IMG/VR virus record: IMGVR_UViG_3300033066_001908
Length of the DNA stretch: 64,000 nt
Strand: one strand, 5' to 3'
From: a virus
Taxonomy: Duplodnaviria > Heunggongvirae > Uroviricota > Caudoviricetes
In this document: positions 8,609-63,967 of the stretch, piece after piece
How the letters are laid out: each line of letters begins with the position of its first letter
How positions within the stretch are numbered: the stretch's first letter is position 1
Notes under the pieces: model-generated
What the model was told of the DNA's origin: nothing
The model's input: the letters and a program-made list of their open reading frames with translations, nothing else
Databases searched by the model: none
Translations under genes and position numbers: made by a program

Positions 8609-9151
8609 TCATTTGTGGTTTTTGTGCGGGCAAACACCGCCGTTAAGACTCCGGCCGCAGTTACAGTTAAAGCACAACAAGGCGAATCCGTCTCGTGGAA
8701 ATCCGTGCTTGCGTAACCACCTGTAGAAATTGCCGTTGATGCTTTTCCGATGTGTCGCACCGCCGCCATTCGTATGATCGATTGTCAGAAACATAGGCGT
8801 GGTTTCACCGCAACATTCACACTTACCGCCATACGCTGCAATGACGGCTTCTTTTAAGCGATCAATTGACTTTCGAGAATTTACATAACAGGTTTCGCAT
8901 TTCGACCCACGGCTCAAAGGCTTGCCACAGTGTCCGCACACGCCGACTTGACGACGTACGGCAGCTTTCTTTCGCCAACGAGTCTTTTGTACCTCACGAC
9001 AATGTGCACACATAACGAAACCATCAGTTGGTACCCTCCCGCACTTACAGAGTCCGGCGGCTTTCCGCGCTGCCGTAAGTTTATTTCGACTTTGGCGCAG
9101 ACTTTCACGTCGATGTTCAGTACGGGTAGTTGCCATAAACGTGTTCCTCAA
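8609..9151 (-). CDS. HNH endonuclease (zinc-ribbon His-Me finger)
   Basis: CGHCGK...CETC...CECCGE...LTIDHTNGGG...N...LLCFNCN. This is an HNH core (DH...N...N) flanked by CxxC pairs. Confidence 0.6.
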   Translation of the reverse strand: MRNTFMATTRTEHRRESLRQSRNKLTAARKAAGLCKCGRVPTDGFVMCAHCREVQKTRWRKKAAVRRQVGVCGHCGKPLSRGSKCETCYVNSRKSIDRLKEAVIAAYGGKCECCGETTPMFLTIDHTNGGGATHRKSINGNFYRWLRKHGFPRDGFALLCFNCNCGRSLNGGVCPHKNHK

Positions 9152-10169: not shown

Positions 10170-10316
10170 TACTCCGGTTTAGAAGAACCAGGGGAAAAAC
10201 GGCGCGAACTTAATGTAAACGCCCACAGCGTGTAAAAGCTTCCAGGTGAGTTTGCAGCACTCCCAGCACTCGCTCTTAAAGAATTCCCAAGTCCATTCTT
10301 GCTCTTCTGGGTACAT
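10170..10316 (-). CDS. Small Trp/Cys/Phe-rich ORF (48 aa), translationally coupled
   Basis: Manual translation gives MYPEEQEWTWEFFKSECWECCKLTWKLLHAVGVYIKFAPFFPWFF. There is a GGAGGA SD. The ATG overlaps the stop of the upstream gene as TAATG. It is below the 60-aa track cutoff. Confidence 0.3.
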
Positions 10317-10678
10317 TATTCCTCCGTGACGTGTCGTCCAGATCGTAGTCGAACAGCCCGATGATGCCGGGTGGAGACCTTTGGCGCAACCTTCTTGTTG
10401 TGCAGGCTCCCAAAGTCATCAAGATATGGAATTTCAAAACTGGCTGCCAGACGACGTCCAGCTTGTTCAGCTTCCTCCTTGGTATTGAACACTTCAGTGG
10501 ACACCTTGGAGTTCTTCCAGATTTCGTGTCCTTTGCCGCCTTTGGTGATGTGTTTAATGAAAATGCTGGCTTTGTACCGCTCAACATCCGGGTTCCCACC
10601 GAAGCCCTTTTTGAATTCACCAACGTGTGCGGCCACGCAGCCCTGCTTCAGTTCTTCAACTGTTGGGTCAGCTGCCAT
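10316..10678 (-). CDS. Hypothetical protein (120 aa)
   Basis: ORF. Its upstream region carries a variant of the conserved AT-rich motif. Confidence 0.45.
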   Translation of the reverse strand: MAADPTVEELKQGCVAAHVGEFKKGFGGNPDVERYKASIFIKHITKGGKGHEIWKNSKVSTEVFNTKEEAEQAGRRLAASFEIPYLDDFGSLHNKKVAPKVSTRHHRAVRLRSGRHVTEE

Positions 10679-10795
10679 GTTGCCCTTTCCACAAATTTAT
10701 TAGAGCCAATAAGATCGGCCTGTTGAGTTTTCTTTTTGGCCCGGCTATCTTCAAGCCGAGCACGAGGCACCATTTTATCATGAATAGGGACGTTC

Positions 10796-11791
10796 ATGCG
10801 CGAAGTTCGCAATATCCCACAGGGACAAGCTGGTCGGCAAATCTATCGACGCAGTGGGCCAATTCGCCGGCATCCTGAGACGGATCTCAAGAGGCCCGCA
10901 ACAGAATTCTTGACCAACGTCATCAACAACACTGTCCGGTTGGACTTGCCACATGGCTGTTTCAATGCCGGTATGGTAGCCGCCAAGGATGGTGACGGCT
11001 TCATTATGGTCTTTCGGCCGAACGAGTTTGCTTTCTCAATCTGTCGTTTGGACAGGAACTACAAGATCATCACGCCACCGTGTGATCTGGGAATCACAAA
11101 CTGTGCGGATCCCCGCTTAATCTGGCTGGCTGATGGCCGTCTGATGATGATCTACTCGTCATACAACGATGATCCACTGGACCCAGTGGAGTGCATGCGC
11201 GGCGCGATCCTGCTGGATCCAGACGTGCATCCCACTTTGTTCCTGGCGCCTGTGCGGGCGTTTCGGATCAGCCCGCCATCGCCGGAGCGGCAGAAAAACT
11301 GGATGCCGTTCCTGTTCGAGGAAAAGCTCCATCTCATCTCCAGCGTGCGTCCGCACACAATCTGGACCTGGGACAAGCCAGGTAAGGTCGCCGACAAGGC
11401 GTACGAAACCGACTACATCTCACCCTGGTTCTGTCCGGAATTCTTCCGCGGCAACACCAATGCGGTCCAGTTGGCTGATGGCAATTATCTTGGCACGTTC
11501 CACACTGTCATGCGGGAACGTGAGATGCACTTTTACGATAACGGTTGTTATGTCTTCGAAGGCAAGCCGCCGTTCAAAGTGTTGCGTTGTTCGCGCCGCT
11601 GCTATTTGCCCGCTGAGGGCGCCTGCGAACCGCACTACCGAAAACAGTATCGCATCACTGTCTGTTTCCCGGTTGGAATGGTCCGTGATGGCGAAAAGCT
11701 GTTGATCTCTTACGGTGACAACGATTCTTCGGTTAAGATCGGCGAGACGACTGTCGAGCAAATGCTTTCAACCACAATGCCAGTTTACTAG
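10796..11791 (+). CDS. GH130-family-like beta-propeller protein (DUF377-like; glycoside phosphorylase/transferase-like)
   Basis: CFNAGMVAAKDGDGFIMVFRPNE, ADPRLIWLADGRLMMIY, RQKNWMPFLFEEKLHLISSVRP and C-terminal ISYGDNDSSVKIGETTVEQM resemble the GH130 fNpg, DPR, KNxxLFPEK and YGAAD blocks. The N-terminal 50 aa are Arg-rich, so the start is uncertain. Confidence 0.45.
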   Translation: MREVRNIPQGQAGRQIYRRSGPIRRHPETDLKRPATEFLTNVINNTVRLDLPHGCFNAGMVAAKDGDGFIMVFRPNEFAFSICRLDRNYKIITPPCDLGITNCADPRLIWLADGRLMMIYSSYNDDPLDPVECMRGAILLDPDVHPTLFLAPVRAFRISPPSPERQKNWMPFLFEEKLHLISSVRPHTIWTWDKPGKVADKAYETDYISPWFCPEFFRGNTNAVQLADGNYLGTFHTVMREREMHFYDNGCYVFEGKPPFKVLRCSRRCYLPAEGACEPHYRKQYRITVCFPVGMVRDGEKLLISYGDNDSSVKIGETTVEQMLSTTMPVY

Positions 11792-12353: not shown

Positions 12354-12941
12354 ATGCGCTGCGTGTATAGAATTATTGAAACTACAACCGGTAAATTTTA
12401 CATCGGTAGTACGGCAAACACCCAAACACGTTGGGCTTGGCATCGTACTACGTTGCACCGGGGCACGCATCACTCGAAACATCTCCAACGGGCTTGGAAC
12501 AAATACGGAGCCGACGCCTTTCGCTTTGAATCTGTTGAAGATTGCACCAACTGCGATGACGCCCAGCTACTGGCTAGAGAACAGGCTTGGTTAGACAAAA
12601 CAGAATGTTGGCGACGGGCGTTTGGTTTTAACATTTCCAAAAGTGCCGATGCGCCATGGCGAGGACGTAAACATTCAACCGAGACACGGGCCAAGATGTC
12701 AAAAACACGACAAGGTCGTGTGGTCTCAGAAGAAACAAAGCGCAAAATTGCCCAAAGTTTGAGTGGACGTAAACGACCAACTGAAGTGGTCGAGAAAATG
12801 CGGGCAAGTCTGCAGGGTCGAAAACTCACAGAAGAACACAAAGCCAACATCGGGCGTAGTGGGTTAGGTCGAGTCGTAACAGAAGCCACAAGAAATAAAA
12901 TTGCGGCTGCACGTCGCGGACAGAAAGCAGTCAATGCCTGA
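12354..12941 (+). CDS. GIY-YIG homing endonuclease with NUMOD3-like repeats (I-TevI-like)
   Basis: N-terminal VYRIIETTTGKFYIGST...R...N.. is the GIY-YIG core. Three HSTETRAKMSKTRQGR / SEETKRKIAQSLSGRK / TEEHKANIGRSGLGR repeats are NUMOD3-like DNA-binding motifs. It sits freestanding between the MTase and GT genes. Confidence 0.75.
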   Translation: MRCVYRIIETTTGKFYIGSTANTQTRWAWHRTTLHRGTHHSKHLQRAWNKYGADAFRFESVEDCTNCDDAQLLAREQAWLDKTECWRRAFGFNISKSADAPWRGRKHSTETRAKMSKTRQGRVVSEETKRKIAQSLSGRKRPTEVVEKMRASLQGRKLTEEHKANIGRSGLGRVVTEATRNKIAAARRGQKAVNA

Positions 12942-20655: not shown

Positions 20656-20675
20656 AAGCCCGGCTGCCCGGGCTG
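20656..20675. terminator. GC-rich hairpin, AGCCCGG...CCGGGCT family
   Basis: AGCCCGG-CTGC-CCGGGCT. The same hairpin family is seen at 30077 and 56744. The plus strand downstream is CCCTTCATTTC. Confidence 0.3.
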
Positions 20676-21166: not shown

Positions 21167-21604
21167 ATGCCGTGGTCAATCTATCAAATCGAATGCCTGG
21201 AAACTGGACAGATCTATATCGGGCAAACCAAGTACCGCATGCCGTTCAGCCGCTTGGCTGATCACGTATCGACGTTACGAAACCAGAAGAGTCCACACCC
21301 AAAACTTCAACAAGTTTGGAATGAATACCCAACTCTGGTCTTCTGGCAATTCCGCGTGTTAGATGATGAAATCGAATCCCAACGTACGGCAGACCGTCGC
21401 GAAGCCTATTTCACACTGCAAGTTCCTGAAGACAAGCGCCTGAATGAAGTCTCACGTGTGCGGTCAACTGTTGAGAAATATCTTGAAGTTGAACAACTAT
21501 GTGCTCAAGGCCTGCTTTACCGTGAAGTTAGTCAACGTACGGGTGTCTCGCTGGGACAGATCTCTAAGATTCGGAAAAAGGTTCGAGACGGTCTTTTTGA
21601 ATGA
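21167..21604 (+). CDS. GIY-YIG endonuclease with C-terminal HTH
   Basis: Start at ATG 21167 with an AGGAAG SD. SIYQIECLETGQIYIGQTK...R...H is the GIY-YIG core. C-terminal LYREVSQRTGVSLGQISKIRKK is HTH-like. Confidence 0.65.
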   Translation: MPWSIYQIECLETGQIYIGQTKYRMPFSRLADHVSTLRNQKSPHPKLQQVWNEYPTLVFWQFRVLDDEIESQRTADRREAYFTLQVPEDKRLNEVSRVRSTVEKYLEVEQLCAQGLLYREVSQRTGVSLGQISKIRKKVRDGLFE

Positions 21605-23798: not shown

Positions 23799-24192
23799 GC
23801 CTCCTGCCTTGTATCGCTTGGATCAACTCCGAGCGGGGTTCTGGGTTGTCGGCGTTCCAGGCCTGGATGGCCCTCAATCGCGTGATCCCATGATACTTGA
23901 GGGCCTTCTTGCAGGCTACAGTGCATACGGCTACACAAGAGCCAGGTACGCCACTTTCAGTGTCAGAACACACTTGCGGCCGTTTGCCGCAGTGTTTGCA
24001 CTTGTTCCCCTCGTCGCGGATCTCCCGCAGCGCTGGAACCAGATCGACCAGGTCGTTCAAGATCCAGGAGTTCACCCACAGTTCGTAACTCGAACTGAAG
24101 CCAGGGTTGTCCTGAATGAAAGCTGGTCCGGACTTTATTAGCTCAAATAATTTCTTAGCACGATCCCTCTTCGTGTCCGACACCTTCGGCAT
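23794..24192 (-). CDS. Hypothetical Cys-rich protein (132 aa)
   Basis: ORF with CKHCGK...C...CVAVCTVAC. A variant of the AT-rich motif lies inside its 5' coding region. Confidence 0.4.
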   Translation of the reverse strand: MPKVSDTKRDRAKKLFELIKSGPAFIQDNPGFSSSYELWVNSWILNDLVDLVPALREIRDEGNKCKHCGKRPQVCSDTESGVPGSCVAVCTVACKKALKYHGITRLRAIQAWNADNPEPRSELIQAIQGRRR

Positions 24193-24564
24193 TGGTCACC
24201 TTGTCCTCAGGGACCAGGACGTGCTTAACGCCGTCCTGGTCAATCATGAATGTTCGGATGCGACCCATCGCAGCATAGAACTCCGGCGGGTGTTCCTCGT
24301 CGCCGTGCAGATCCCAGATCCAGGCGTGAGCCCACTCATGAATCAACCATTCGTAGAGGTTTGCGATGTTGTTCTTGAGTGAGAGTCGAATGATGAATGA
24401 CTTGCCGGAGCGCGACGTGGCGCAGTCTCCGTGCAAGTCATCCTCGTGCATGTACCGAATGTAGAACCGCTTCGTCAGCGGGAAATGTTTGATGAGGTAC
24501 GGCAGCCAGTTCTTAACCGCGGCGATCTTTTCTTCGTCGGTTTCGTACTTTTTCCGGGACATGG
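24155..24564 (-). CDS. Putative HExxH zinc metallopeptidase-like protein (SprT/DUF45-like)
   Basis: Start taken at MSRKKYETDEE. LIHEWAHAWIWDLHGDEEHPPEF contains HExxH plus downstream His/Glu candidates. Confidence 0.4.
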
Positions 24565-28208: not shown

Positions 28209-28607
28209 CTAGCTTGTGGGTTTTTCCCGCGGGCCATAACCAAAGTCCCGCAACTTACCGCACAGCGTGCGGAGCGCAATCCCGAGAGCGCGACTCATCT
28301 CGGTGCGGTTGCCTTTGTAGCGGTTGTACGCGATCAGAATCAACTCGCGTTCCATTTTCTTCACGTCGAGATCCACCGGTTGAACCGGCACACGATCATT
28401 CCACTTCACCAACGCGGCATCCGGAGTATCACCGGACACGTGTGGGTTTACCTGGCAATTCACATTCACACAAGCAACCGCCTGCCCACCTGGCGTGTCA
28501 GCCAATTGCGGACGAATTACCGGTTGTGAACCGCACCAGGGGCACGGAAATGCTTGTGCGATAGGAAGTAATGGCAGATTTTCAGTGGTCATGTGCGCAG
28601 ATTCCAT
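28209..28607 (-). CDS. Zinc-ribbon plus Fis-type HTH DNA-binding protein
   Basis: N-terminal CPWCGS...C...C and C-terminal ILIAYNRYKGNRTEMSRALGIALRTLCGKLRDFG, a Fis-family HTH. Confidence 0.5.
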   Translation of the reverse strand: MESAHMTTENLPLLPIAQAFPCPWCGSQPVIRPQLADTPGGQAVACVNVNCQVNPHVSGDTPDAALVKWNDRVPVQPVDLDVKKMERELILIAYNRYKGNRTEMSRALGIALRTLCGKLRDFGYGPREKPTS

Positions 28608-29455: not shown

Positions 29456-29792
29456 TCGCCTCTTTATTCCGGCTCCAAGGCCAGCGCCCAGAGTCCACCA
29501 TCACGGTTCCGTCGCCAACCGAACACCAGATAGTATTCAGGTTGACGTGAAACACGAGCGCCATGTTCTCATGATCCAACTCCACCTTATGGCAGGTGGT
29601 CAGTGTCATGTGTCTGCCCGTACGGTACTTCTCCGTTTTGATCGTGATCCGTTCCGCTTCCAACGTCGCAGCCAGCTTTTGTTGCCGCTCGTAGGGCACG
29701 TGCATGAGCATTTTGTCCTGCCTTAATACCGGCCAGCAGGCCGTAAAAGAATGCCAGCACCATCCGAGCGGGCACCATGGTCGTACCCTCAC
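29343..29792 (-). CDS. Hypothetical protein
   Basis: ORF overlapping its neighbours. Start maybe MLMHVPYE. Confidence 0.3.
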   Translation of the reverse strand: MRVRPWCPLGWCWHSFTACWPVLRQDKMLMHVPYERQQKLAATLEAERITIKTEKYRTGRHMTLTTCHKVELDHENMALVFHVNLNTIWCSVGDGTVMVDSGRWPWSRNKEASAWMLGYITAYRRAKGYFESASESQSEAFSIQRSRRR

Positions 29793-30078
29793 CTTCCTCG
29801 GACTCGAAATTGATCACCTGGTACTCGATGCCACCAATCCCGACACAGACACGATATGCGTACTGGAAAGTGTGAACGCGACGAAACCAGACTCGCTTAC
29901 TCCGTGTGATCTCATACTCGTCAACAACCCAGTCTTCCTGGGTCAGCTTTCTCGCGTCAGCCAACAGGCTGTTAATCTCAGCGTGATTTGTCGGCGGTCG
30001 CTCGTCCGGCGACCGATAGGTTGTCATTGGCATATCGTCCCAGCCTCCGGTAATTGGCGGTCCCACGTTAATCTCCAA
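29587..30078 (-). CDS. Hypothetical protein
   Basis: ORF. Probable start MPMTTYRS. Confidence 0.35.
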   Translation of the reverse strand: MEINVGPPITGGWDDMPMTTYRSPDERPPTNHAEINSLLADARKLTQEDWVVDEYEITRSKRVWFRRVHTFQYAYRVCVGIGGIEYQVINFESEEGEGTTMVPARMVLAFFYGLLAGIKAGQNAHARALRAATKAGCDVGSGTDHDQNGEVPYGQTHDTDHLP

Positions 30079-30098
30079 ATGAAGAGAGCCCGGCTTCG
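30077..30098 (-). terminator. GC-rich hairpin terminator (GAGCCCGGC-TTCG-GCCGGGCTC)
   Basis: Perfect 9-bp stem. The minus strand downstream is TCTTCATTT. Same hairpin family as 20656 and 56744. Confidence 0.4.
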
Positions 30099-30119
30099 GC
30101 CGGGCTCATTTGCGATAGA

Positions 30120-30161
30120 CAACCAAAAATGGTTGTTTCCGTGTAAACAACCAAAAATGGT
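30120..30161. repeat. Two copies of the palindromic 14-mer AACCAAAAATGGTT
   Basis: AACCAAAAATGGTT at about 30120 and about 30148, each a perfect AACCA/TGGTT inverted repeat. They lie between a gene stop and the hairpin. Confidence 0.4.
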
Positions 30162-30165
30162 TATC

Positions 30166-38394: not shown

Positions 38395-38410
38395 GAGGCC
38401 TCCAAACGAA

Positions 38411-38438
38411 AATGGGGTGGTCCACAGACCACCCCATT
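38411..38438 (-). terminator. Rho-independent terminator
   Basis: AATGGGGTGGTC-CACA-GACCACCCCATT with a perfect 12-bp stem. The minus strand downstream is TTCGTTT, followed by a GGAGG SD and the deacetylase ATG. Confidence 0.5.
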
Positions 38439-38458
38439 TTTATTAGAAACAATAAATT
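38439..38458. promoter_or_regulatory. Conserved AT-rich palindromic 20-mer, copy A (TTTATTAGAAACAATAAA)
   Basis: It lies directly after the stop of 38460..39005 and directly before the terminator hairpin. Near-identical copies are at 46132 and 56770. Confidence 0.35.
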
Positions 38459-38459
38459 G

Positions 38460-39005
38460 TTAAACAGCGGAGAACAACCGACCGAGATATTTGGTTGCAT
38501 CTTCGTAGGAATAAGCGTGGATCAAACCGTGCTCCTTTGTCACAGTCTCCTCTGGTAAGATTTCCATCGGTGTCTTCTTCAAGATCACGTCGGTCCAGGT
38601 GATCTGAATGACGCGCTTTCGCCAACCGATCGTAAGCGGCCCAATCGGCGTTTCTTCAAAAGACAACCACGGCTTGTGCCAGCAACAGTATCGAGAGCAG
38701 TACGTGTTGGGTACTTCCTTCGGTGCTGTAACGACCTTATTGTCAAGCAGACACTGGCGTAAGTTTGCCAACACAAGCACGCGTTTGTTTTGCATTTCCG
38801 GATCCCGACTCACCCGCAACCTGAAGATCTCATCAATGATGTTGTCGATTGCATCACTGACGATATAGCCTTCTTCTTTGGTCAACTGACGTGATGTCGT
38901 AACAGCAACCCCTAACGAATCCGGACCACTGAGAATCTGCTTTGCGCCAGCATGAATCCAGTTTGTTGTGTCCATTTTCAACCTTAGACAGCAAGCTCCG
39001 CACAT
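38460..39005 (-). CDS. Hypothetical protein (start probably MDTTNWI)
   Basis: ORF. Confidence 0.4.
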   Translation of the reverse strand: MCGACCLRLKMDTTNWIHAGAKQILSGPDSLGVAVTTSRQLTKEEGYIVSDAIDNIIDEIFRLRVSRDPEMQNKRVLVLANLRQCLLDNKVVTAPKEVPNTYCSRYCCWHKPWLSFEETPIGPLTIGWRKRVIQITWTDVILKKTPMEILPEETVTKEHGLIHAYSYEDATKYLGRLFSAV

Positions 39006-39669: not shown

Positions 39670-39701
39670 TTCGGTTTTCTAAAATTAAAACCGGAGGTTC
39701 G

Positions 39702-40520
39702 TCAGCAATCGCGATCCTGACTGCCATCACTGTACACATACTGGCGCCAAGGGATAAATTTCCCACGCACCCAAAAGCCCCATTCCCGTTTGAGCGGCCA
39801 CACAAAGGCCAAAGTCCAACAGGTCTCACCTGGGAAAAGCGTCAGGCGATGTCGATGCTCGGCAGGGAATGATCGCAGCCAAGGCGCTGTATACGTCTTC
39901 CTATCAACCAACACGGTCGATTTCCCGCCATGGGCATCCACATGCGGCGTCTCTTCCACATACCGACCCCAGAGGCCCAGTGTGGTAAACTTCCTGGGGT
40001 GATCGTGAAGATCCCGGGCACCATCGTCTCCGACAAAGTGATGCACGTACAACGAACAACCAAGCCGGACAGACTTGAACAAAGTCCACCGAAACATGTA
40101 AGGCGGACAATGGTCACCCGACTTGATCTCTTCCAATTTGAAAAAGGTATCGATCAGGTTCCTGAGCGACCAGAAATTCAAGTTGATCTGCCGCTTCCAT
40201 TCATCGGTCAGAATCCGCAGCTCGTCCTGCGTGGCCAAATCGGGTTCGGTCCGATTGTCCTGGTCATACCCAACCTTAGGCAGACAAAACCCGTGTTTGA
40301 CCAAATCCGCGTGATTGGTCAAACCGAGACTCTGCATCGCCACCGTCAACAGAGTTTCTGAGGTACATGGATATTCCGCATAATCAGCGTACACGTAGTT
40401 CAATACGCTGCAGTTCCACATATCCAGCTCGTCGAGCTTAACCTTCTTCCGCCAGTCCTTTGGACCTTTCGCGTCCAGGAGCTTGATGCCCTTTCGGACA
40501 CGTGTCGCTGTCGACTTCAT
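39702..40520 (-). CDS. Hypothetical Trp-rich protein (272 aa)
   Basis: ORF. Confidence 0.45.
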   Translation of the reverse strand: MKSTATRVRKGIKLLDAKGPKDWRKKVKLDELDMWNCSVLNYVYADYAEYPCTSETLLTVAMQSLGLTNHADLVKHGFCLPKVGYDQDNRTEPDLATQDELRILTDEWKRQINLNFWSLRNLIDTFFKLEEIKSGDHCPPYMFRWTLFKSVRLGCSLYVHHFVGDDGARDLHDHPRKFTTLGLWGRYVEETPHVDAHGGKSTVLVDRKTYTAPWLRSFPAEHRHRLTLFPGETCWTLAFVWPLKREWGFWVRGKFIPWRQYVYSDGSQDRDC

Positions 40521-45336: not shown

Positions 45337-45609
45337 TCAGCTCTTGCGGACGATCACTTCACCTTCAAAGGACACTTCGCCAATGGCTTCCATGTCTTGC
45401 GCGTCAAACCCACCATCCGTCAAGATCTGGTCCCGTTGTTCCACCGACTGCACGCCGGCCATGCTAGCTGTAGGCCAGACATTCAACTTCACGAACGTCT
45501 CCGCGGCCTTGCGGCGGTTCTCCCGCTTGATATTCGCCGGCACCTGAACAGTCACATGTCCGCGAATCGTCACAGGCACCCTGATTGCAAACGCATCCTT
45601 CTTCGCCAT
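45337..45609 (-). CDS. Hypothetical protein (90 aa)
   Basis: ORF. Confidence 0.4.
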   Translation of the reverse strand: MAKKDAFAIRVPVTIRGHVTVQVPANIKRENRRKAAETFVKLNVWPTASMAGVQSVEQRDQILTDGGFDAQDMEAIGEVSFEGEVIVRKS

Positions 45610-46085
45610 TACTCTTCCCCAAATTGATTTTCAGCAATCCCGACAAGCGTGTCGTTCTTACCCAGATTCAATTCATCCAACGCCCACTGCGTCAGACAAC
45701 CAACCGCCGCGGCCCGCGAGTCCTCAAGCCACTCGTCGACCTTGCGTTCCATAAGCTGCCGAATGGCTTCCTTCCGATCGGCCGCGAGGGCTTCCCGGAA
45801 TGACTGCTCGTTCTCGAAGATATCGATCGGCAACCTGGGCTTCAGCAACCAGGTCTTGATGTCTGGCCGTTTCAGAAAGAAGCCGAGATCCGTCTTGTCA
45901 TCGACAAACTGAATCCCGCCCTCATGATCTGACCAGACGCTATCAACCGCAATGATGCTTCCGGCCGGGATCTTTGAGCCCCCGGCTTCCTCAGTGGCAC
46001 TGACAGGACCGTACATACCGTTCCTGCCAGTCCACAAGTCCTTCTTCAACACATAGAAGTCGCCGTTTTGAATCTGTCGCGTCAT
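45609..46085 (-). CDS. Hypothetical protein (158 aa)
   Basis: ORF. Start/stop overlap with the downstream gene. Confidence 0.45.
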   Translation of the reverse strand: MTRQIQNGDFYVLKKDLWTGRNGMYGPVSATEEAGGSKIPAGSIIAVDSVWSDHEGGIQFVDDKTDLGFFLKRPDIKTWLLKPRLPIDIFENEQSFREALAADRKEAIRQLMERKVDEWLEDSRAAAVGCLTQWALDELNLGKNDTLVGIAENQFGEE

Positions 46086-46131
46086 GTTTTCACCGGTAAA
46101 CGTTCGTTAAAGACGTGCATACTCCCACAAC

Positions 46132-46152
46132 CTTATTAGAAACAATAAACTC
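46132..46152. promoter_or_regulatory. Conserved AT-rich palindromic 20-mer, copy B (CTTATTAGAAACAATAAACTC)
   Basis: Intergenic, 15 nt after the stop of 46168..46395 and 46 nt before the ATG of 45609..46085. Confidence 0.35.
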
Positions 46153-48778: not shown

Positions 48779-49179
48779 ATGTACCAGAGCTTTGCTGAAG
48801 CTCTGTTAGGGTGCAGATTCTCGTCCAAAACCTTACAACAGATCGCGACCGCGATCAGGACCGGACACTCGTGCTGGTCCTTGATCACGTCCTCGATAAT
48901 CGGTTTCAGCTCCGACATCTGCTGCAGATACTCACTGGTATGCGTACCTGCCATGAGCACCTTTTTCACATGAAACATCTTAGCTCGAAGAGCTTCAAGT
49001 TTCACGCTAATGCGACGGGTCTCTTCCGGGGTCGCCATTTGGGCGCCGGCTGCGGTTCCTCCCGCTGTTCCTGCAATTTGAGCCGGCGCGGTTTGACCGT
49101 CTTGAATGACGTGCGAACTGCCAACCGGTCCAGGATCTTCTTGATGTGTTTGGGATCCGTTTTCAGACAAAACGCACAC
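48739..49179 (-). CDS. Hypothetical protein
   Basis: ORF. Probable start MATPEETRR at about 49038. Confidence 0.35.
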   Translation of the reverse strand: MCVLSENGSQTHQEDPGPVGSSHVIQDGQTAPAQIAGTAGGTAAGAQMATPEETRRISVKLEALRAKMFHVKKVLMAGTHTSEYLQQMSELKPIIEDVIKDQHECPVLIAVAICCKVLDENLHPNRASAKLWYMCAGAELMEEKGQ

Positions 49180-49640
49180 TCCATGTCATTGCAGTACGGT
49201 TTACCGATCTCATTGGGTAACGGGTCCAGCCCGACCTGGTGAGCCTCCCAACCCTTCTCTTTCATAGCGGTAACCATTTCTTTCGGCAACCGATCGAGAA
49301 AGCCAATCGAACAACGATCAGCAACCGCGAACAGTTCAGGGCCGCAAATGTCACCGTGCCACCACTTCTGATACTTGACTTTGAAGTCCGCCTCAGCTTC
49401 ACGCCAATCCTTCTTGTGCGCGTTGACATAGTCATAATTGGCCAGAATTTCCGGAGCCAATTCAGTCGGACCACGCGGAGGGCTTGCAATAGGATCGGGC
49501 ACAGGACGCAGTGGTGTTGGCAACTTGGCTCGGTACTCTGCGTCTTTTTCACGCAGCCACGCATCTTCCTGCTCAGGCGCCACGCCTTCCGCGTAGATCA
49601 AGGTCGTCATAGCGAACAGTAGAGCTAAGACAGTCTTCAT
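49002..49640 (-). CDS. Secreted protein (signal peptide), hypothetical
   Basis: MKTVLALLFAMTTLIYA|EGVAPEQE signal peptide, with conserved Cys in the mature part. Confidence 0.5.
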   Translation of the reverse strand: MKTVLALLFAMTTLIYAEGVAPEQEDAWLREKDAEYRAKLPTPLRPVPDPIASPPRGPTELAPEILANYDYVNAHKKDWREAEADFKVKYQKWWHGDICGPELFAVADRCSIGFLDRLPKEMVTAMKEKGWEAHQVGLDPLPNEIGKPYCNDMECAFCLKTDPKHIKKILDRLAVRTSFKTVKPRRLKLQEQREEPQPAPKWRPRKRPVALA

Positions 49641-49661
49641 GGGTCGAATCCTTTCGAAACT

Positions 49662-50339
49662 TTATTGGGAGCAATACATTTTCTCTGTGATGGCATCCCG
49701 CGTTCGCAGCGCACTGGGGAATAGTCGCTGCACGCAGGCATAAAACCCGTCCATCCCGGGTTTCCGGTCCCAGATGAAATGCCCAATACAGGCATCCGTC
49801 TGATCCCAGGTCTGGTCACCGTCAGCAACCATGTGGTTGTACACATCCGGGTACTCACACACAGTGGGTTTAACCGAAGCAACCGCACGGGCCAAGGACA
49901 GCTGATCAATGTGCTTGAACTTGGTCCACTCTTCATGCCACCTGTTGAACAGGTAATCGGCCGCATGGCCTGCATGCCACATGAAGATGCCGCCATTGTA
50001 CTGGACAGCATCTCTACCCAGCAATTCCACCGTATAATTACGCTCGTCTGGATAAGCGTGATCACAGCGCTCCACGGTCGGAGTCCGGTCCTTGCGGAAA
50101 CTGAAAGTCGCATCCTGCAAGTAGTTCCAGATATCGTCGATTGGTTTCACGACGAGCGTATCACAATCCAGATACAAGGTCTTTGAGAACTGTGAGCACA
50201 TGTTCAACATCGTTTTGAGCGAACGGGATGCTGCTTTATCGTTCAGACCTTTTGCATTGTAGATCTTCGACACGTAACCGATTGTGATGTTGAACTCGGG
50301 CACAAGATCCACCGTATGCGCCACCGGTTCAGTGGTCAC
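49662..50339 (-). CDS. GT8-like glycosyltransferase (nucleotide-diphospho-sugar transferase)
   Basis: KTLYLDCDTLVVKPIDDIWNY matches the GT8 vlYLDaDiivrgdl.eLw DxD block. GTG start directly abutted by tandem repeats. Confidence 0.5.
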   Translation of the reverse strand: MTTEPVAHTVDLVPEFNITIGYVSKIYNAKGLNDKAASRSLKTMLNMCSQFSKTLYLDCDTLVVKPIDDIWNYLQDATFSFRKDRTPTVERCDHAYPDERNYTVELLGRDAVQYNGGIFMWHAGHAADYLFNRWHEEWTKFKHIDQLSLARAVASVKPTVCEYPDVYNHMVADGDQTWDQTDACIGHFIWDRKPGMDGFYACVQRLFPSALRTRDAITEKMYCSQ

Positions 50340-50340
50340 G

Positions 50341-50385
50341 ATGTGAATCGGATCGCAGGTGAATCGGATCGCAGGTGAATCGCCG
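50341..50385. repeat. Tandem direct repeat, 16-bp unit GTGAATCGGATCGCAG x2 plus a partial third
   Basis: GTGAATCGGATCGCAG GTGAATCGGATCGCAG GTGAATCGCCGAG, located 1 nt upstream of the GTG start of the GT8-like gene. Confidence 0.5.
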
Positions 50386-50459: not shown

Positions 50460-50705
50460 TTAGAACTCCGACTCCTGCACAATTTTGCACTCGTCCATAA
50501 GGGCCTGCGCGTGCGCCATCGTGATCTCATCCGGATTATCGCAGGTCGCCGCCAGCTCACTGACATGCTCGTCTATATCGTTAAGGTCAGTGGCTTCCTT
50601 GAGCCCACACACTGCCTCGACTGCCAGATCCAGAACATCGCAGGCCTGCCAGTAAGCCTCTTTCGCGCGAACTGCATCCTGAAGTGCTTTCAGTACGTCG
50701 TCCAT
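50460..50705 (-). CDS. Small acidic protein (81 aa)
   Basis: ORF. Confidence 0.35.
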   Translation of the reverse strand: MDDVLKALQDAVRAKEAYWQACDVLDLAVEAVCGLKEATDLNDIDEHVSELAATCDNPDEITMAHAQALMDECKIVQESEF

Positions 50706-56251: not shown

Positions 56252-56717
56252 ATTTCCGCTCTTCCTCCACTGCTAGTCCGAGCAAGCGTTCGACATCACT
56301 CGGAGTGCAGGTCAGTTTTGCTTGGTTCAGGTAGTACGGCATGTCCTTGTTGTCCAGCCTGATGTTGGGCACCGTGGCTTCGTACAGGACATCCAGCACG
56401 GCGATCTTATGTCGTTGGTCGACGGCAAGCAACTTAGCGCCGGTTTCCACGTCATTAACTTTGACAGAACAGACCTGATAGCCGTCATCCGTGATCATGC
56501 AGTGAACGAAGTCGCTATTGATCACAACCACCTCACGGTACTGGCCATCGTGCTCGTAGATCATGTTGATGCCGGGAACAATCACATCGCCGAGTGAATA
56601 CACTTCGGCCATTGGTTCAGCGATTTGCACAGTGTGGCCTTTGGTAACAAAGATCTCGATCGACGGTGTGGCAAAACACAAACCGGCTAGACAAACGAAA
56701 ACGAGCAGAAATTTCAT
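56181..56717 (-). CDS. Secreted protein (signal peptide), hypothetical
   Basis: Start taken at MKFLLVFVCLAGLCFA|TPSIE. The 3' end overlaps the sulfotransferase start by about 70 nt in another frame. Confidence 0.45.
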   Translation of the reverse strand: MKFLLVFVCLAGLCFATPSIEIFVTKGHTVQIAEPMAEVYSLGDVIVPGINMIYEHDGQYREVVVINSDFVHCMITDDGYQVCSVKVNDVETGAKLLAVDQRHKIAVLDVLYEATVPNIRLDNKDMPYYLNQAKLTCTPSDVERLLGLAVEEERKYVRNRDRGGLSSERHYLLSSTVE

Positions 56718-56743
56718 GGTTTTCTCCAGGGTGGAAATGACAA

Positions 56744-56763
56744 GAGCCCGGTTGCCCGGGCTC
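56744..56763 (-). terminator. GC-rich hairpin terminator (GAGCCCGG-TTGC-CCGGGCTC)
   Basis: Perfect 8-bp stem, and the minus strand downstream is TTGTCATTTCC. It sits between the stop of 56790..57287 and the next start. Confidence 0.5.
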
Positions 56764-56769
56764 CTGAAT

Positions 56770-56790
56770 CTTATTAGGAACAATAAACTC
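56770..56790. promoter_or_regulatory. Conserved AT-rich palindromic 20-mer, copy C (CTTATTAGGAACAATAAACTC)
   Basis: It abuts the TAG stop of 56790..57287 and is followed by the terminator hairpin. Same arrangement as copy A. Confidence 0.35.
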
Positions 56791-57287
56791 TACGCACCGA
56801 TCTGCGCGTTCTTGTTCGCGGAAGCCGCATCGAAGGCAGAGGCATAGTGAACTTTGATCTGCACATCGGCGTTTGGCAGGTAGTTGTGCGAACGTGCGAT
56901 CGCACAAGCAACTGTCGCAGTCTTGGCCAGCACGGTGTTGGAAAGCAGGCTGTTGCCGCCGTCCTGGGCCGGCGCCAGCATGTCTCCCACCTGGAAGGCA
57001 GATGCCACGCAGCCGGTTTGCCACAGCGACATGGGACTGGTATCCACTTCGATCGCCGTATCTGCGGAGTCACCCGCAAAGTGCTGCGACACTGCCACAC
57101 CCAGAAACTTGGCCGCGAAGGCCGCCTGTGTGGTTGCCAGGTCTGTGGTCCATGTAAACGCATTCGCAGGTTTGCACTGGCCGGTTGCAGTGTCCAACCA
57201 GACCAAATCACCCACCTTGATCGCCGTAGATGACGCGACGGGGACAGTGTGGATGCTTTGCTCGCCACCTTTGTATACGTTCGACAT
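56790..57287 (-). CDS. Small protein followed by strong terminator; possibly an abundant structural/decoration protein
   Basis: 165-aa ORF rich in Ala/Thr/Val (beta-rich composition). The motif plus terminator immediately downstream suggests a highly expressed gene. No family recognised. Confidence 0.4.
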   Translation of the reverse strand: MSNVYKGGEQSIHTVPVASSTAIKVGDLVWLDTATGQCKPANAFTWTTDLATTQAAFAAKFLGVAVSQHFAGDSADTAIEVDTSPMSLWQTGCVASAFQVGDMLAPAQDGGNSLLSNTVLAKTATVACAIARSHNYLPNADVQIKVHYASAFDAASANKNAQIGA

Positions 57288-59275: not shown

Positions 59276-59823
59276 CACCGTCTCCTGCAAACCCACAAGG
59301 AATCCGCCAGCTCAAGTGATTCCAACTGACCCGCCGCAATCAATTCACGTACGAACTTGGTCACGCCCGCACACGTGCCATCCGCACCTTCGACAGCGTC
59401 ATGAAAGGCCACAACAGCTTTAGTCATCAGGTTGGGCAGCAGATTCATATAATCGGCTGCCACACCTTCATAGCTGTGGTCCCCGTCAATGAAAGCCAAA
59501 TCGTAGAAGTGGTTGTAACGAACTGTTCGCGAATCAGCGACCAGCCGCTCAACGCCACGTGTGTTCAGATAATTCGAACAGTTCTCATTCTCACGTGTTG
59601 GGTCATTCTCCACGCTGGTGATCGGCACATGCGCATTCGCACCGGCCAGCAAGCAGGTCGACCCACCACGATAACGACCAATCTCCACAATGCCAAAGCG
59701 AGCCTGTTTGGCATAACGCCAGAGCAGGCCCGCCTCGCCAATGTTCAATCGGGCCAAGCCGCGACTGGTTGAGTCACTTGTGAACAACCAGAGCATGTCT
59801 GCCAGATCAGGCGTGTTTCCCAT
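59275..59823 (-). CDS. Class I SAM-dependent methyltransferase (Methyltransf_24-like)
   Basis: IVEIGRYRGGST (motif I) and LAFIDGDHSYEGVAADYMNLLPNLMTKAVVAFHD. Confidence 0.6.
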   Translation of the reverse strand: MGNTPDLADMLWLFTSDSTSRGLARLNIGEAGLLWRYAKQARFGIVEIGRYRGGSTCLLAGANAHVPITSVENDPTRENENCSNYLNTRGVERLVADSRTVRYNHFYDLAFIDGDHSYEGVAADYMNLLPNLMTKAVVAFHDAVEGADGTCAGVTKFVRELIAAGQLESLELADSLWVCRRR

Positions 59824-59830
59824 TGATCCC

Positions 59831-60223
59831 TCAATTCACACCGGTGCGCCAACAGTATTCCCGCAAATAATCTCTGACCGGACCAAGTTTATCACCAGTG
59901 GTGTTCTTGATCACGTTCACGACCTTATTGGCTGCCGTGGCTAGAACTTTGGCCGCCTGGCCCGCGCCCTTCTGCTTGTACAATTGCCAACCGACAATCG
60001 TAGTCGGCACCTTGACACCAGTCTTACCATTGACCACATCGGCCAACAGGCGCTGAAACACCACATCTGGCTCAGTGTCTTCGGCGCCGTGCTCGTGATA
60101 CAACGACTGGGCTGCTTCAAACGCTTCGATCGCTGCCTTCAGCTTGCCCAGCGGGCTCGTCGTGACTTTCGTTGCCATCAGTAACCGCATCCTCTCGAAC
60201 TTCGAGTGTTTGATCTGCGGCAT
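59831..60223 (-). CDS. Hypothetical protein
   Basis: ORF. Start uncertain; it overlaps 60117..60920. Confidence 0.35.
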   Translation of the reverse strand: MPQIKHSKFERMRLLMATKVTTSPLGKLKAAIEAFEAAQSLYHEHGAEDTEPDVVFQRLLADVVNGKTGVKVPTTIVGWQLYKQKGAGQAAKVLATAANKVVNVIKNTTGDKLGPVRDYLREYCWRTGVN

Positions 60224-62355: not shown

Positions 62356-62823
62356 TCACGGTGAAGCTCCTTCGCGTAACGTACCGTCAGGATTCCGCAA
62401 TCGATACCACCAAAGGCCTCGGACACTGGCATCTCGCCGACGATCCACAATCCAACTGCCGAACTTCTCTTTCCGAAGATCCGTGATTCGCGCAGCGACA
62501 CTGCTGGTGTTGCTGTTACCAACACGCGCAGCGATGTCCGCCTGCGTGTGCCAATTGCCGTCACTCATCGCGTGAAACACCCGCCCGAGCGCTGTCTGCA
62601 GTCGATCGTGATCCTGGCTGGGATCGTAAGTTGCACCATCGAAGTGCTGGCCCTGTGCGGCATTGGCCTGTGCCCGCTCGATGTCCGTTTGATACATCGA
62701 GCGGGCGTTTCGCATCGCATCAGCCATTGTGTTCCAGGCCACTTGATCAGTAGATGCAGCATCCCACAAAGTCAAAAACATGTTCACAGCATCAATATAA
62801 GCTGTCTGAGTCTCATGTCGCAT
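62356..62823 (-). CDS. Hypothetical protein with possible winged-helix DNA-binding C-terminus
   Basis: ADIAARVGNSNTSSVAARITDLRKEKFGSWIVDRRR is HTH-like. Weak call. Confidence 0.35.
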   Translation of the reverse strand: MRHETQTAYIDAVNMFLTLWDAASTDQVAWNTMADAMRNARSMYQTDIERAQANAAQGQHFDGATYDPSQDHDRLQTALGRVFHAMSDGNWHTQADIAARVGNSNTSSVAARITDLRKEKFGSWIVDRRRDASVRGLWWYRLRNPDGTLREGASP

Positions 62824-63967
62824 TTGCAGTTTCTACTTTGAAAGGCAAGTCAGCACGCACCGTAATTGGCACGTACCAACGGATCTTCACCTTCTCACGA
62901 TTAGGCCCATACCGAACCGCGTGCGGGTGCCCACCACGAATGTGGGCATACTCCAATTCTCGACCGGTAGGCTCGCCCGTACCGGACTGTTTAACTCGTG
63001 GCCGATGGTCCAAGAACATCAAGTCCGTTCCGACGTTGTAGCCGACCTTACCTTTGCGTCGGGCACGCGCCGCATAGCCTTCACGTTTCTCGGGATCCTG
63101 TTCACGATCAAAATTGTACCTGTCCTTGTTCAGGACATCGGCCTCGCAGATCGTCGGGTTATCGGACAGGAACCCGATTGTCACCACGAGACGCAACAAA
63201 TTGCTGTAGAACTCTTTGTTGAGTCCAGAAATACCTTGGTCGCACTGCAGATAAAAACGATCGATTTCGTCCGCGAGTGAATCAGTGCCGTTCGTGCGTA
63301 AGATGCACGTCACAGGCGGCAACGGCATGTTAAGGCCCATCGCCAAACCTTCCGCGTAGACAATTTCCGCGTCTCCCCGGGCTGCGCCAAAACTTAAAAG
63401 CAAACGCCCATGATCCGGTTGATGCCAGGCCAGTAGCGTACTCACAGAAACAGGTTGTGCGTCTGTTAATTCGAAACTGTACTGTGAAGCCAAATGCTCG
63501 GCCATGTGCCGTGGATACGTGAGAATCTTGACGAAAGGCGGTAAGCGAATGTTCACAGCCTTATATTCATGCGGCATTTTGAACATAGCCGCTGGGATCT
63601 TACTCAAATCCGAGCGGCACAGTTTTTCCACCATTTCCGGATGCACGTTGTAATACGGCGAGCCGGCTTCCAGCCAAACACGTTCCATGGCTGTGATTAC
63701 TTTTAGTTCATCTAAAATGCGCGCCGAACGCGGATCAGTAACTATCCGCGCTTGCGAATGCAACAAATCTTCGAACTGATCAAAGGAAGCTCCCTTGCGA
63801 TCACCATCTGCACGCATCATGCTACGCACACGACCGTACATTGTGTGCCAGTCGAAAAACTTCGTCATTTGTACACGATCTCCCGTTTCTGTTCGGTCAT
63901 ATTTGGCATTGGAGCGAGCAGATAGATCGCGCCCCAACCGTGATAAACCTTCTGAAACCAGCCCCAT
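62813..63967 (-). CDS. Hypothetical protein (384 aa)
   Basis: Long clean ORF. A further minus-strand gene ends at about 63971 (TGA) and runs off the right edge. Confidence 0.5.
   Translation of the reverse strand: MGLVSEGLSRLGRDLSARSNAKYDRTETGDRVQMTKFFDWHTMYGRVRSMMRADGDRKGASFDQFEDLLHSQARIVTDPRSARILDELKVITAMERVWLEAGSPYYNVHPEMVEKLCRSDLSKIPAAMFKMPHEYKAVNIRLPPFVKILTYPRHMAEHLASQYSFELTDAQPVSVSTLLAWHQPDHGRLLLSFGAARGDAEIVYAEGLAMGLNMPLPPVTCILRTNGTDSLADEIDRFYLQCDQGISGLNKEFYSNLLRLVVTIGFLSDNPTICEADVLNKDRYNFDREQDPEKREGYAARARRKGKVGYNVGTDLMFLDHRPRVKQSGTGEPTGRELEYAHIRGGHPHAVRYGPNREKVKIRWYVPITVRADLPFKVETANAT

Follow-up and report, generated by a model that had tools for sequence, protein, structure and literature searches.

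The DNA analysed here (the window) is a stretch of 64,000 nucleotides (nt) from the IMG/VR virus record IMGVR_UViG_3300033066_001908, assigned to the Caudoviricetes. It belongs to an uncharacterised phage genome of 84 kb and carries a short AT-rich dyad, repeated mostly at gene junctions, which is the subject of this work. The window has a G+C content of about 55%, with a negative GC skew throughout, and nearly all of its genes lie on the minus strand, the exceptions on the plus strand being a module at 10.8-14.6 kb and a few inserts. The Logan assembly SRR32380195_7381 (83,989 base pairs, bp) represents the same genome, with agreeing gene coordinates, and genes of the window were also found on shorter contigs from JGI sample 3300020577; megablast and blastn searches of the INPHARED phage collection returned no close relative of the window DNA. 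About 90 window proteins were scanned for Pfam and PHROGs families, and the 10 kb beyond the window were included through precomputed Pfam matches, which together cover about 74 of the 84 kb. Most of the scanned window proteins, and about 90% of the proteins of this genome, belong to no recognisable family; those that could be recognised include glycosyltransferases, sulfotransferases, methyltransferases, polysaccharide deacetylases, an SPFH protein and an HD-domain protein.

A first-pass annotation had named five sites carrying related AT-rich repeats, and all five were found where it had placed them: TTATT-N6-AATAA matches the window exactly five times (10697, 24135, 38440, 46133 and 56771), each time at one of those sites. 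When up to one mismatch was allowed, nine matches were obtained against 0.36 expected, a number that none of 100 shuffled sequences reached, which bears out the claim that such a repetition is unlikely to arise by chance. Similarly, the 17-mer TTATTAGAAACAATAAA with up to three mismatches occurs four times in the window against 0.04 expected. Read on the minus strand, that is, along nearly all of the genes, the motif is (G)TTTATTGTTYCTAATAA(R). As to further copies, a sixth and degenerate one was found in the window and four more in related phages, whereas none was present in the extra 10 kb to the left of the window, so that the 74 kb of phage genome hold only six. An origin of the copies as remnants of a longer duplicated segment was rejected, given that the similarity among them stops at about 25 nt, with no shared sequence beyond.

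Site A (38437-38458, minus strand; AATTTATTGTTTCTAATAAAAA, core 16-mer 38440-38455) lies 3 nt past the TAA stop of gene 38460-39005 and 45 nt ahead of the ATG (38394) of a polysaccharide deacetylase gene recognised by Pfam. Site C (56768-56789, minus strand; AGTTTATTGTTCCTAATAAGAT) lies 2 nt past the TAG stop of a 165-amino-acid (aa) cement-like gene (56790-57287), a position that is kept in the relatives L126, L127 and L203. Site E (24132-24153, minus strand; AAATTATTTGAGCTAATAAAGT) follows the stop of a SprT-like gene (24155-24562) by 4 nt and falls within codons 14-20 of an overlapping 132-aa open reading frame (ORF) with its ATG at 24192. The placements of A and C agree with the earlier description of them as standing immediately after minus-strand stop codons, but that of site B (46130-46151, minus strand; AGTTTATTGTTTCTAATAAGGT) does not, since it lies 16 nt past the TGA-TGA stop of a 70-aa membrane-protein ORF and the TGA that abuts it is out of frame. 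The degenerate site F (49659-49680, minus strand; AATGTATTGCTCCCAATAAAGT) has the core TGTATTGCTCCCAATAAAG at 49662-49677, with GTATT as left arm and an intact right arm; this right arm contains the TAA stop of the upstream 213-225-aa gene, and the ATG of gene 49002-49640 is found 21 nt downstream. Site D (10694-10715), to which no strand is assigned, is located in the 117-nt divergent gap between genes 10316-10678 (minus strand) and 10796-11791 (plus strand), 18 nt ahead of the ATG at 10678 and with no upstream gene on its strand. Every exact copy is thus found 2-16 nt past a stop codon or in the divergent gap. A possible weak copy at 59855-59870 (minus strand; TTATTTGCGGGAATAC), with one mismatch in the right arm and about 30 nt before the ATG at 59823, could be due to chance. 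Directly after site B there is a 12-codon mini-ORF (46082-46120, minus strand; MHVFNERLPVKT) with a good Shine-Dalgarno (SD) sequence, GGGAG, and its TGA overlaps (ATGA) the ATG of a 158-aa gene (45609-46085) whose own SD is poor, an arrangement that may reflect translational coupling or a leader peptide.

Along the genes, the stop codon is followed by the motif and then by a hairpin, a U-rich tail, an SD and an ATG at sites A and C, or by an SD and an ATG at sites B (which has no hairpin), D and F. The hairpin after site A (38410-38439, minus strand) has a GC core, GGGGTGGTC / GACCACCCC (38414-38435), which is lengthened by an A-tract/U-tract and followed by the tail UUUUCGUUU and the SD GGAGG, with a folding energy of -30.5 kcal/mol (z -4.2). 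The hairpin after site C (56742-56767, minus strand; GAGCCCGG-GCAA-CCGGGCTC, core 56745-56764, tail UUGUCAUUU) folds at about -27 kcal/mol (z -2.9) and precedes the SD GGAGAA and an ATG at 56717. Both are stable GC-rich hairpins with a U-tract behind them and look like intrinsic terminators. In the relative L203, a hairpin of different stem sequence occupies the same position as that of site C, which argues that the structure itself matters. At these three copies the stem starts at the fifth nt after AATAA, behind the linkers AAAT, GATT and ATTT. The reported direct coupling of the motif to terminator hairpins therefore holds for A and C, where the hairpin lies downstream in the direction of transcription at fixed spacing, but it was overstated as a general feature, as seven of the 10 copies known to us, four of them among the six in the window, have no hairpin. 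Three hairpins of the window, at 56745-56764, 30087-30106 and 20657-20674, have the common stem AGCCCGG / CCGGGCT, and those at 56.7 and 30.1 kb also share the tail T(C/T)TT(G)TCATTT just ahead of the SD; they may form a small family of repeated terminators or 5' hairpins.

An alignment of the 10 copies, six from the window and four from relatives, showed that the conserved unit is a 22-bp dyad, A-n-Y-TTATT-n6-AATAA-R-n-T, and not a 20-mer as initially proposed. TATT and AATAA are invariant, A at -11 and R at +9 occur in all 10 copies, and T at +11 and Y at -9 in eight each. In the otherwise variable spacer, two positions on the coding-strand side are largely kept, position 5 (C in 8/10) and position 6 (a pyrimidine in 9/10). 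This C-Y before AATAA is an oriented feature, present on the coding strand in seven of the eight copies whose orientation is fixed by the genes, and all copies of fixed orientation point along transcription. The 22-bp dyad thus carries a minor component that is oriented. Over the full 17 nt, including the spacer, copies A, B and C agree completely or almost completely, and the central block differs among copies of one genome (GTTT, GGCT, TGAG and GCTC). Inverted half-sites about one helical turn apart, with conserved arms and a variable spacer, are as expected of an operator for a dimer, and the 5-N6-5 layout with half-site centres one helical turn apart is the geometry of CRP/FNR-type sites.

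Short contigs of related phages were reached via homologues of the cement protein. After the cement stop, L126 (72% cement identity) reads TAA-ac-TTTATTtcggccAATAAA (copy L126a) and then 15 nt to the ATG; L127 (53%) reads TAA-g-CTTATTttttccAATAAA and then 8 nt to an ATG without SD; L203/L204 (58%) read TA-GTATTatcgtcAATAAA, followed by the hairpin, an SD and a GTG. L205 (57%), in which the gene order is different, has no motif. At this post-cement junction the arms persist while the spacers (GTTCCT, TCGGCC, ATCGTC and TTTTCC) and the flanks diverge. Downstream of the motif there is a 178-aa gene in the window and a sulfotransferase gene in L126, L127 and L203, and the presence of the hairpin also varies among the orthologous copies, as of the three relatives only L203 has it. 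Long-term purifying selection has kept the arms at an orthologous junction whose surroundings have diverged. A second copy in L126 (L126b) lies 7 nt past a tRNA-Met gene. The SD of the following gene, GGGGAG, forms the spacer of this copy, and the ATG of that gene is found 1 nt after the site. For an orthologue of site A (P0089, 67% identity), a 60-nt gap is inferred at the same place.

No copy of the motif was detected in 37 Planctomycetaceae genomic loci with a phage-like head gene cluster obtained by a GTDB scan (597 kb), in 29 IMG/VR loci, in the chromosomal loci L131-L134, or in L207-L211, phages that share only the SPFH gene with the window. Searches of IMG/VR that used single proteins or two protein alignments as queries gave distant relatives only, none of them with the motif. 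In all, about 1 Mb of DNA from more distant relatives and Planctomycetaceae was free of it. An exact scan of IMG/VR returned only single chance-like matches in AT-rich contigs, and a scan of JGI metagenomes with the 272-aa protein encoded at 39702-40520 only unrelated loci. Judged from the genomes compared, the motif is specific to a narrow phage lineage. Given its absence from distant relatives and from Planctomycetaceae DNA, the recogniser is probably encoded by the phage, and the motif is probably no general host signal.

The motif also has promoter-like content. The last 3 nt of the right arm and the 3 flanking nt form the hexamer TAANNT in fixed register in eight of the 10 copies, which agrees with a sigma-70-type -10 element (TANNNT), and the dyad places the hexamer on the antisense strand too at every copy. 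TAANNT is the minimal -10 pattern of primary sigma factors. A conserved -35 element, to be expected 16-18 bp ahead of the -10, is absent from the alignment, the one 4/6 match being TTAACA of site A at 16 bp. A transcription start about 7 nt past the hexamer would make the leaders of D, F and L126a begin with their SD-like sequences and would leave the message of L127, whose gene has no SD, almost leaderless, and at A, C and L203 it would fall inside the 5' arm of the terminator stem. Site D, whose oriented consensus (C-Y before AATAA, TAANNT) is satisfied on both strands, heads a gene block that cannot receive transcription from upstream, and the sole AT-rich island on that gene's side of the divergent gap overlaps the right arm of the motif and its downstream flank. 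A literature search found no mapped consensus for promoters of Planctomycetes.

The first-pass annotation had left three functions in play, namely a promoter, an operator for a dimeric regulator and an RNA processing site. Among them the operator is best supported, by the symmetry at +/-9 and +/-11 and by arms that are kept while the spacer drifts, the promoter stays alive through TAANNT and the short leaders, and RNA processing is poorly supported, as the motif does not fold and mostly lacks a hairpin. Taking these features together, we tentatively favour, at a little under an even chance, a reading in which the motif is an operator for a dimeric phage-encoded protein, set on the -10-like TAANNT hexamer and gating transcription at junctions between gene blocks. 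It builds on a non-random repeat with dyad symmetry out to +/-11, on restriction to one lineage, on the lack of RNA structure and on fixed spacing to the following element, and it is preferred because it accommodates both the dyad symmetry and the directional features. Copies L126b, with an SD in its spacer and an ATG 1 nt on, and E, inside the next ORF, keep perfect symmetry; they cannot be the promoter of the next gene, and such symmetry is as expected of a protein site. Phages also offer precedents, namely repressor sites scattered through short intergenic spaces (stoperators) and dyad repeats with predicted binding of dimers.

According to this operator model, a homodimeric DNA-binding protein of the phage lineage would bind the 22-bp two-fold symmetric site, which is placed within the few untranslated bases behind a stop codon between blocks of co-directional genes and, in one copy, in the divergent gap. 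The site would overlie a weak internal promoter, with the right half and its flank as TAANNT. When the site is free, RNA polymerase would restart about 7 nt downstream, just before the SD or, in the case of A, C and L203, within the 5' arm of the terminator stem, and transcripts begun there would lack a complete terminator. When the site is bound, initiation, read-through from upstream or both would be blocked. The binding of a protein dimer, the start of transcription at the site and the direction of regulation are presumed parts of this model.

Several observations weigh against it. No binding protein emerged from the roughly 90 scanned proteins: the sole recognisable DNA-binding regulator among them is a 127-aa protein (28209-28592, minus strand) with an N-terminal Lar-like zinc ribbon and a C-terminal Fis-type helix-turn-helix (HTH_8), a candidate binder of one of the dyads with nothing that links it to any of them. 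Neither a repressor nor an integrase was recognised among the scanned proteins, so that a role in lysogeny-type silencing is unsupported. The symmetry is imperfect, and the coding-strand C (seven of eight copies of fixed orientation, eight of all 10 aligned) with its pyrimidine, all along transcription, suits a directional element such as a promoter. In addition, the near-identity of A, B and C including the spacer exceeds what a dimer site needs, and six copies in 74 kb are far fewer than the stoperators or the Cluster O repeats of mycobacteriophages.

The best surviving alternative, which we consider unlikely but worth serious weight, is a stand-alone phage-specific promoter of the middle or late class without a dimeric regulator. 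It would be recognised by the host RNA polymerase through a -10-only TAANNT and the upstream TTATT, maybe with a phage sigma factor or appropriator, or else by a phage RNA polymerase, and at A, C and L203 a start in the stem would let the transcript escape termination or provide a stabilising 5' hairpin, for which T7 phi10 is a precedent. The orientation of the copies along the genes, the coding-strand C-Y, the hexamer in eight of 10 copies and the conservation of A, B and C over the whole 17 nt all fit such an element, as do the hairpin start at a fixed distance from AATAA, the 3-15-nt leaders starting at SD-like sequences at B, D, F and L126a, the leaderless geometry of L127, and site D, which shows the oriented features on both strands and lies in the one divergent gap where promoters are required. 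It would also fit that classical sigma-70 promoters are not enriched in the 37-57 kb region (6 found against 9.5 expected). However, a one-way promoter has no role for the A at -11 that mirrors the T at +11 or for an antisense -10 at every copy. Its central block (-20 to -17 in promoter coordinates) varies within the genome, as the specificity region of a T7-like promoter would not; such promoters have an asymmetric consensus of about 17-23 bp with an invariant specificity block around -11 to -8, whereas here the symmetric arms are the invariant part. The missing -35 and the positions of L126b and E speak against it too, and in the 74 of 84 kb covered, where most proteins are ORFans, Pfam and PHROGs revealed neither an RNA polymerase nor a sigma gene; a PDB sequence search with the three largest ORFs for a polymerase likewise gave nothing. 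Sites of other DNA-binding proteins were also considered: neither a Mu C/Mor-type activator site nor a class II activation geometry was retained, because four copies lie 8-21 nt from a start codon, and an IHF site was rejected because it fits site A only.

More speculatively, and with a rather low probability, the dyad could act as a 'stop-or-restart' switch, placed at a constant distance of 4 nt before terminator stems, and a dimeric phage protein would decide the outcome: polymerases arriving from upstream would terminate, and those initiating at the embedded -10 would start within the stem and escape.

An element acting at the level of RNA in a polycistronic message, be it a binding site for a translational-control protein, a nut-like antitermination signal or an AU-rich cleavage site leaving a protective 5' hairpin, appears distinctly improbable. 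The motif always stands in untranslated RNA directly after the stop, in sense orientation, with a terminator at fixed spacing downstream at A, C and L203, an order that resembles cro - nutR - tR1 in lambda, and at site A the spacer and right arm can pair with the SD. Nevertheless, the 22-mers are essentially unstructured as RNA (0 to -1.1 kcal/mol), so the motif is no intrinsic terminator by itself, and there is no Rfam match at gathering score in the whole window. Moreover, the arms are invariant without covariation and it is the loop that varies, contrary to what a boxB-type hairpin would show, the symmetry at +/-9 and +/-11 is a signature of double-stranded DNA, site D stands ahead of a gene without a preceding co-directional gene, and seven copies have no hairpin.

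We regard it as very unlikely that the motif is a repeated extragenic palindrome, or a 'linker' at junctions, which was disseminated by recombination or by some mobile mechanism and marks module boundaries without any regulatory role. The gene content just downstream of the motif does differ between the window and L126, L127 and L203, and other phages with the SPFH gene (L210 and L208) carry dyad repeats of their own right after stops, but there are only six copies, the arms are held by purifying selection at the orthologous site amid divergence, the copies show neither hairpin stability nor flanking target duplication or extended homology, and the homing endonuclease genes of the window do not adjoin them. 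Least probable of all, and scarcely to be expected, is that the motif is merely the A/T-rich upstream part of intrinsic terminators, a 3'-end signal of the preceding gene: the order stop, motif, hairpin is found at three copies and the AAUAAAAA tract at site A pairs with the U-tract and lengthens the terminator stem, but seven copies have no hairpin, the other good terminators of the window (2.9, 8.3, 17.6, 24.9 and 30.1 kb) lack the motif, and no pairing of the motif with the hairpin tail is seen at C or L203.

Compared with known systems, the motif resembles CRP/FNR-type sites, whose 22-bp consensus is AAATGTGATCTAGATCACATTT (TGTGA-N6-TCACA), in its 5-bp inverted half-sites at -8 to -4 and +4 to +8, its 6-bp spacer and its A/T preference at +/-9 to +/-11. 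It differs from them in the half-site sequence and in that four copies are too near the start codon (8-21 nt) for class I or class II activation, and no cNMP-binding or Crp-type HTH protein was found among the scanned proteins. Phage promoters combined with stem-loops include the T7 phi10 leader and the PeSL cassettes of T4-type phages. They have in common with A, C and L203 the succession of a conserved signal, a hairpin and a ribosome-binding site, but their signals are asymmetric and serve known polymerases or sigma factors, whereas the present one is a dyad with an optional hairpin and putative initiation.

The closest analogues in function are the stoperators of Cluster A mycobacteriophages, which are asymmetric 13-mers bound by a monomer of the L5 gp71-type repressor, occur more than 20 times per genome in temperate phages and are thought to control both initiation and elongation (PMC9283540). 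Like stoperators, the motif is dispersed in short intergenic spaces between co-directional genes, all copies lying 0-16 nt past a gene 3' end or in an intergenic gap, and its orientation tracks transcription. Unlike them, it is an AT-rich 22-bp dyad, and not an asymmetric 13-mer, with about six copies in 74 kb of a genome where neither repressor nor integrase was recognised. Cluster O mycobacteriophages, which are not obviously temperate, carry more than 30 copies of a 17-bp dyad, TGTTCGG-N3-CCGAACA, with invariant 7-bp arms and a 3-bp spacer; one third of the copies lie within genes, there is no association with orientation or promoters, the repeat is predicted to bind a dimer, and its function is still open (PMC4351075). 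That repeat is also a lineage-specific dyad, with many copies between ORFs or at the 5' ends of genes, but the window motif has few copies, with arms of 5 bp around a spacer of 6 bp, and it contains an oriented C-Y as well as a -10-like hexamer.

Most likely, the motif is a real lineage-specific cis-regulatory dyad of an ordinary kind, a repeated promoter or operator motif such as is common in phages, with a new sequence. Knowledge of how phages of Planctomycetes regulate their genes is extremely scarce. If the stop-or-restart reading is true, the unrelated-looking dyads of L208 and L210 at the same post-stop place would point to a wider, undescribed class of gene-junction gates. The motif could serve as bait for its regulator and as a marker delimiting transcription units in the 84-kb genome, and it could become a transferable control element for a phylum in which genetic tools are scarce.

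Two of the phages that share only the SPFH gene with the window have junction dyads of their own. In L210 (Logan SRR14784240_28861, a 109-kb contig), about 12 copies of a GC-rich dyad, CCCTATG-N10/11-CATAGGG, were found in 21 kb (e.g. at 5642, 6834, 8879, 10912, 14645 and 18535), most of them starting 0-1 nt after a stop. Conservation of its arms involves no compensatory changes. A terminator hairpin follows one copy, and one ends 6 nt before an ATG (4 nt by a pattern match that runs 2 nt past the dyad). In L208/L207 (Logan SRR17828878_85425), the dyad is GAAGTTTCYWA...AACTTC (GAAGTT-N7-AACTTC), with four copies at 959, 3376 and 6602 (plus strand) and 12728 (minus strand), all gene-oriented and three of them abutting or overlapping a stop; it is another lineage-specific post-stop-codon dyad. 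A core common to the window motif and that of L208, GTTTCTAA, was dropped, as it is not enriched elsewhere in the window.

The window itself contains other dyads and repeats. A unique AT-rich dyad of different sequence, GGTTTTAATTTTAGAAAACC (39673-39692, minus strand), is another junction dyad, located between the 272-aa gene (39702-40520), whose stop lies 9 nt upstream, and the next ATG, which follows after 3 nt. At 30034-30165 (minus strand), two copies of AACCATTTTTGGTTGT, each a small palindrome, together form a long hairpin, and they are followed by a GAGCCCGG...CCGGGCTC hairpin, the tail TCTTCATTT, GGAG and GTG. This region, which folds at -54 kcal/mol (z -5.5) and precedes gene 29587-30033, resembles a second module of operator plus hairpin, different from the first.

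The host of the phage is probably a planctomycete, as judged from homologues of the cement-like capsid protein. This protein has a weak match to PF22758 (E 0.0016, below the family cut-off), and its homologues carry PF09956. Homologues with 37-48% identity are encoded in a phage-like head-gene cluster on Planctomycetaceae chromosomes, and the host assignment therefore follows from them. In L131-L133, the chromosomal cluster comprises genes for a portal protein, a 280-297-aa protein, the cement protein and a Phage_capsid_4 capsid protein, with TerL in L131 and L132 only. The cement gene is present in many Planctomicrobium and Planctomycetaceae genomes (L131-L134 and L166-L202), at about one per genome record retrieved, and the cluster may be a domesticated prophage or an element like a gene-transfer agent.

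Glycan-modifying genes are unusually many for a phage (36-37.8, 51-56.3 and 58.5-59.8 kb in the window, and 10897-14856 in L164), and the set includes several GT2/GT4 glycosyltransferases, one of them of 1319 aa, three sulfotransferases, two polysaccharide deacetylases, PhyH-like dioxygenases and many methyltransferases. A precomputed Pfam match identified an AcrVA2-like protein at 62813-63868. Free-standing homing-endonuclease-like genes are located at 12354-12941 and 21167-21604 (plus strand) and at 8609-9151 (minus strand). They comprise a GIY-YIG gene with NUMOD3 (Pfam) and another ORF, GIY-YIG-like as judged by eye, that ends in an HTH-like C-terminal tail, both opposite in strand to the surrounding genes, and an HNH-like ORF that was identified by eye and is unconfirmed by Pfam. 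Finally, about 2.5 copies of a tandem 16-nt repeat, GATTCACCTGCGATCC, are found at 50340-50385 (minus strand), between genes 49662-50303 and 50460-50705.

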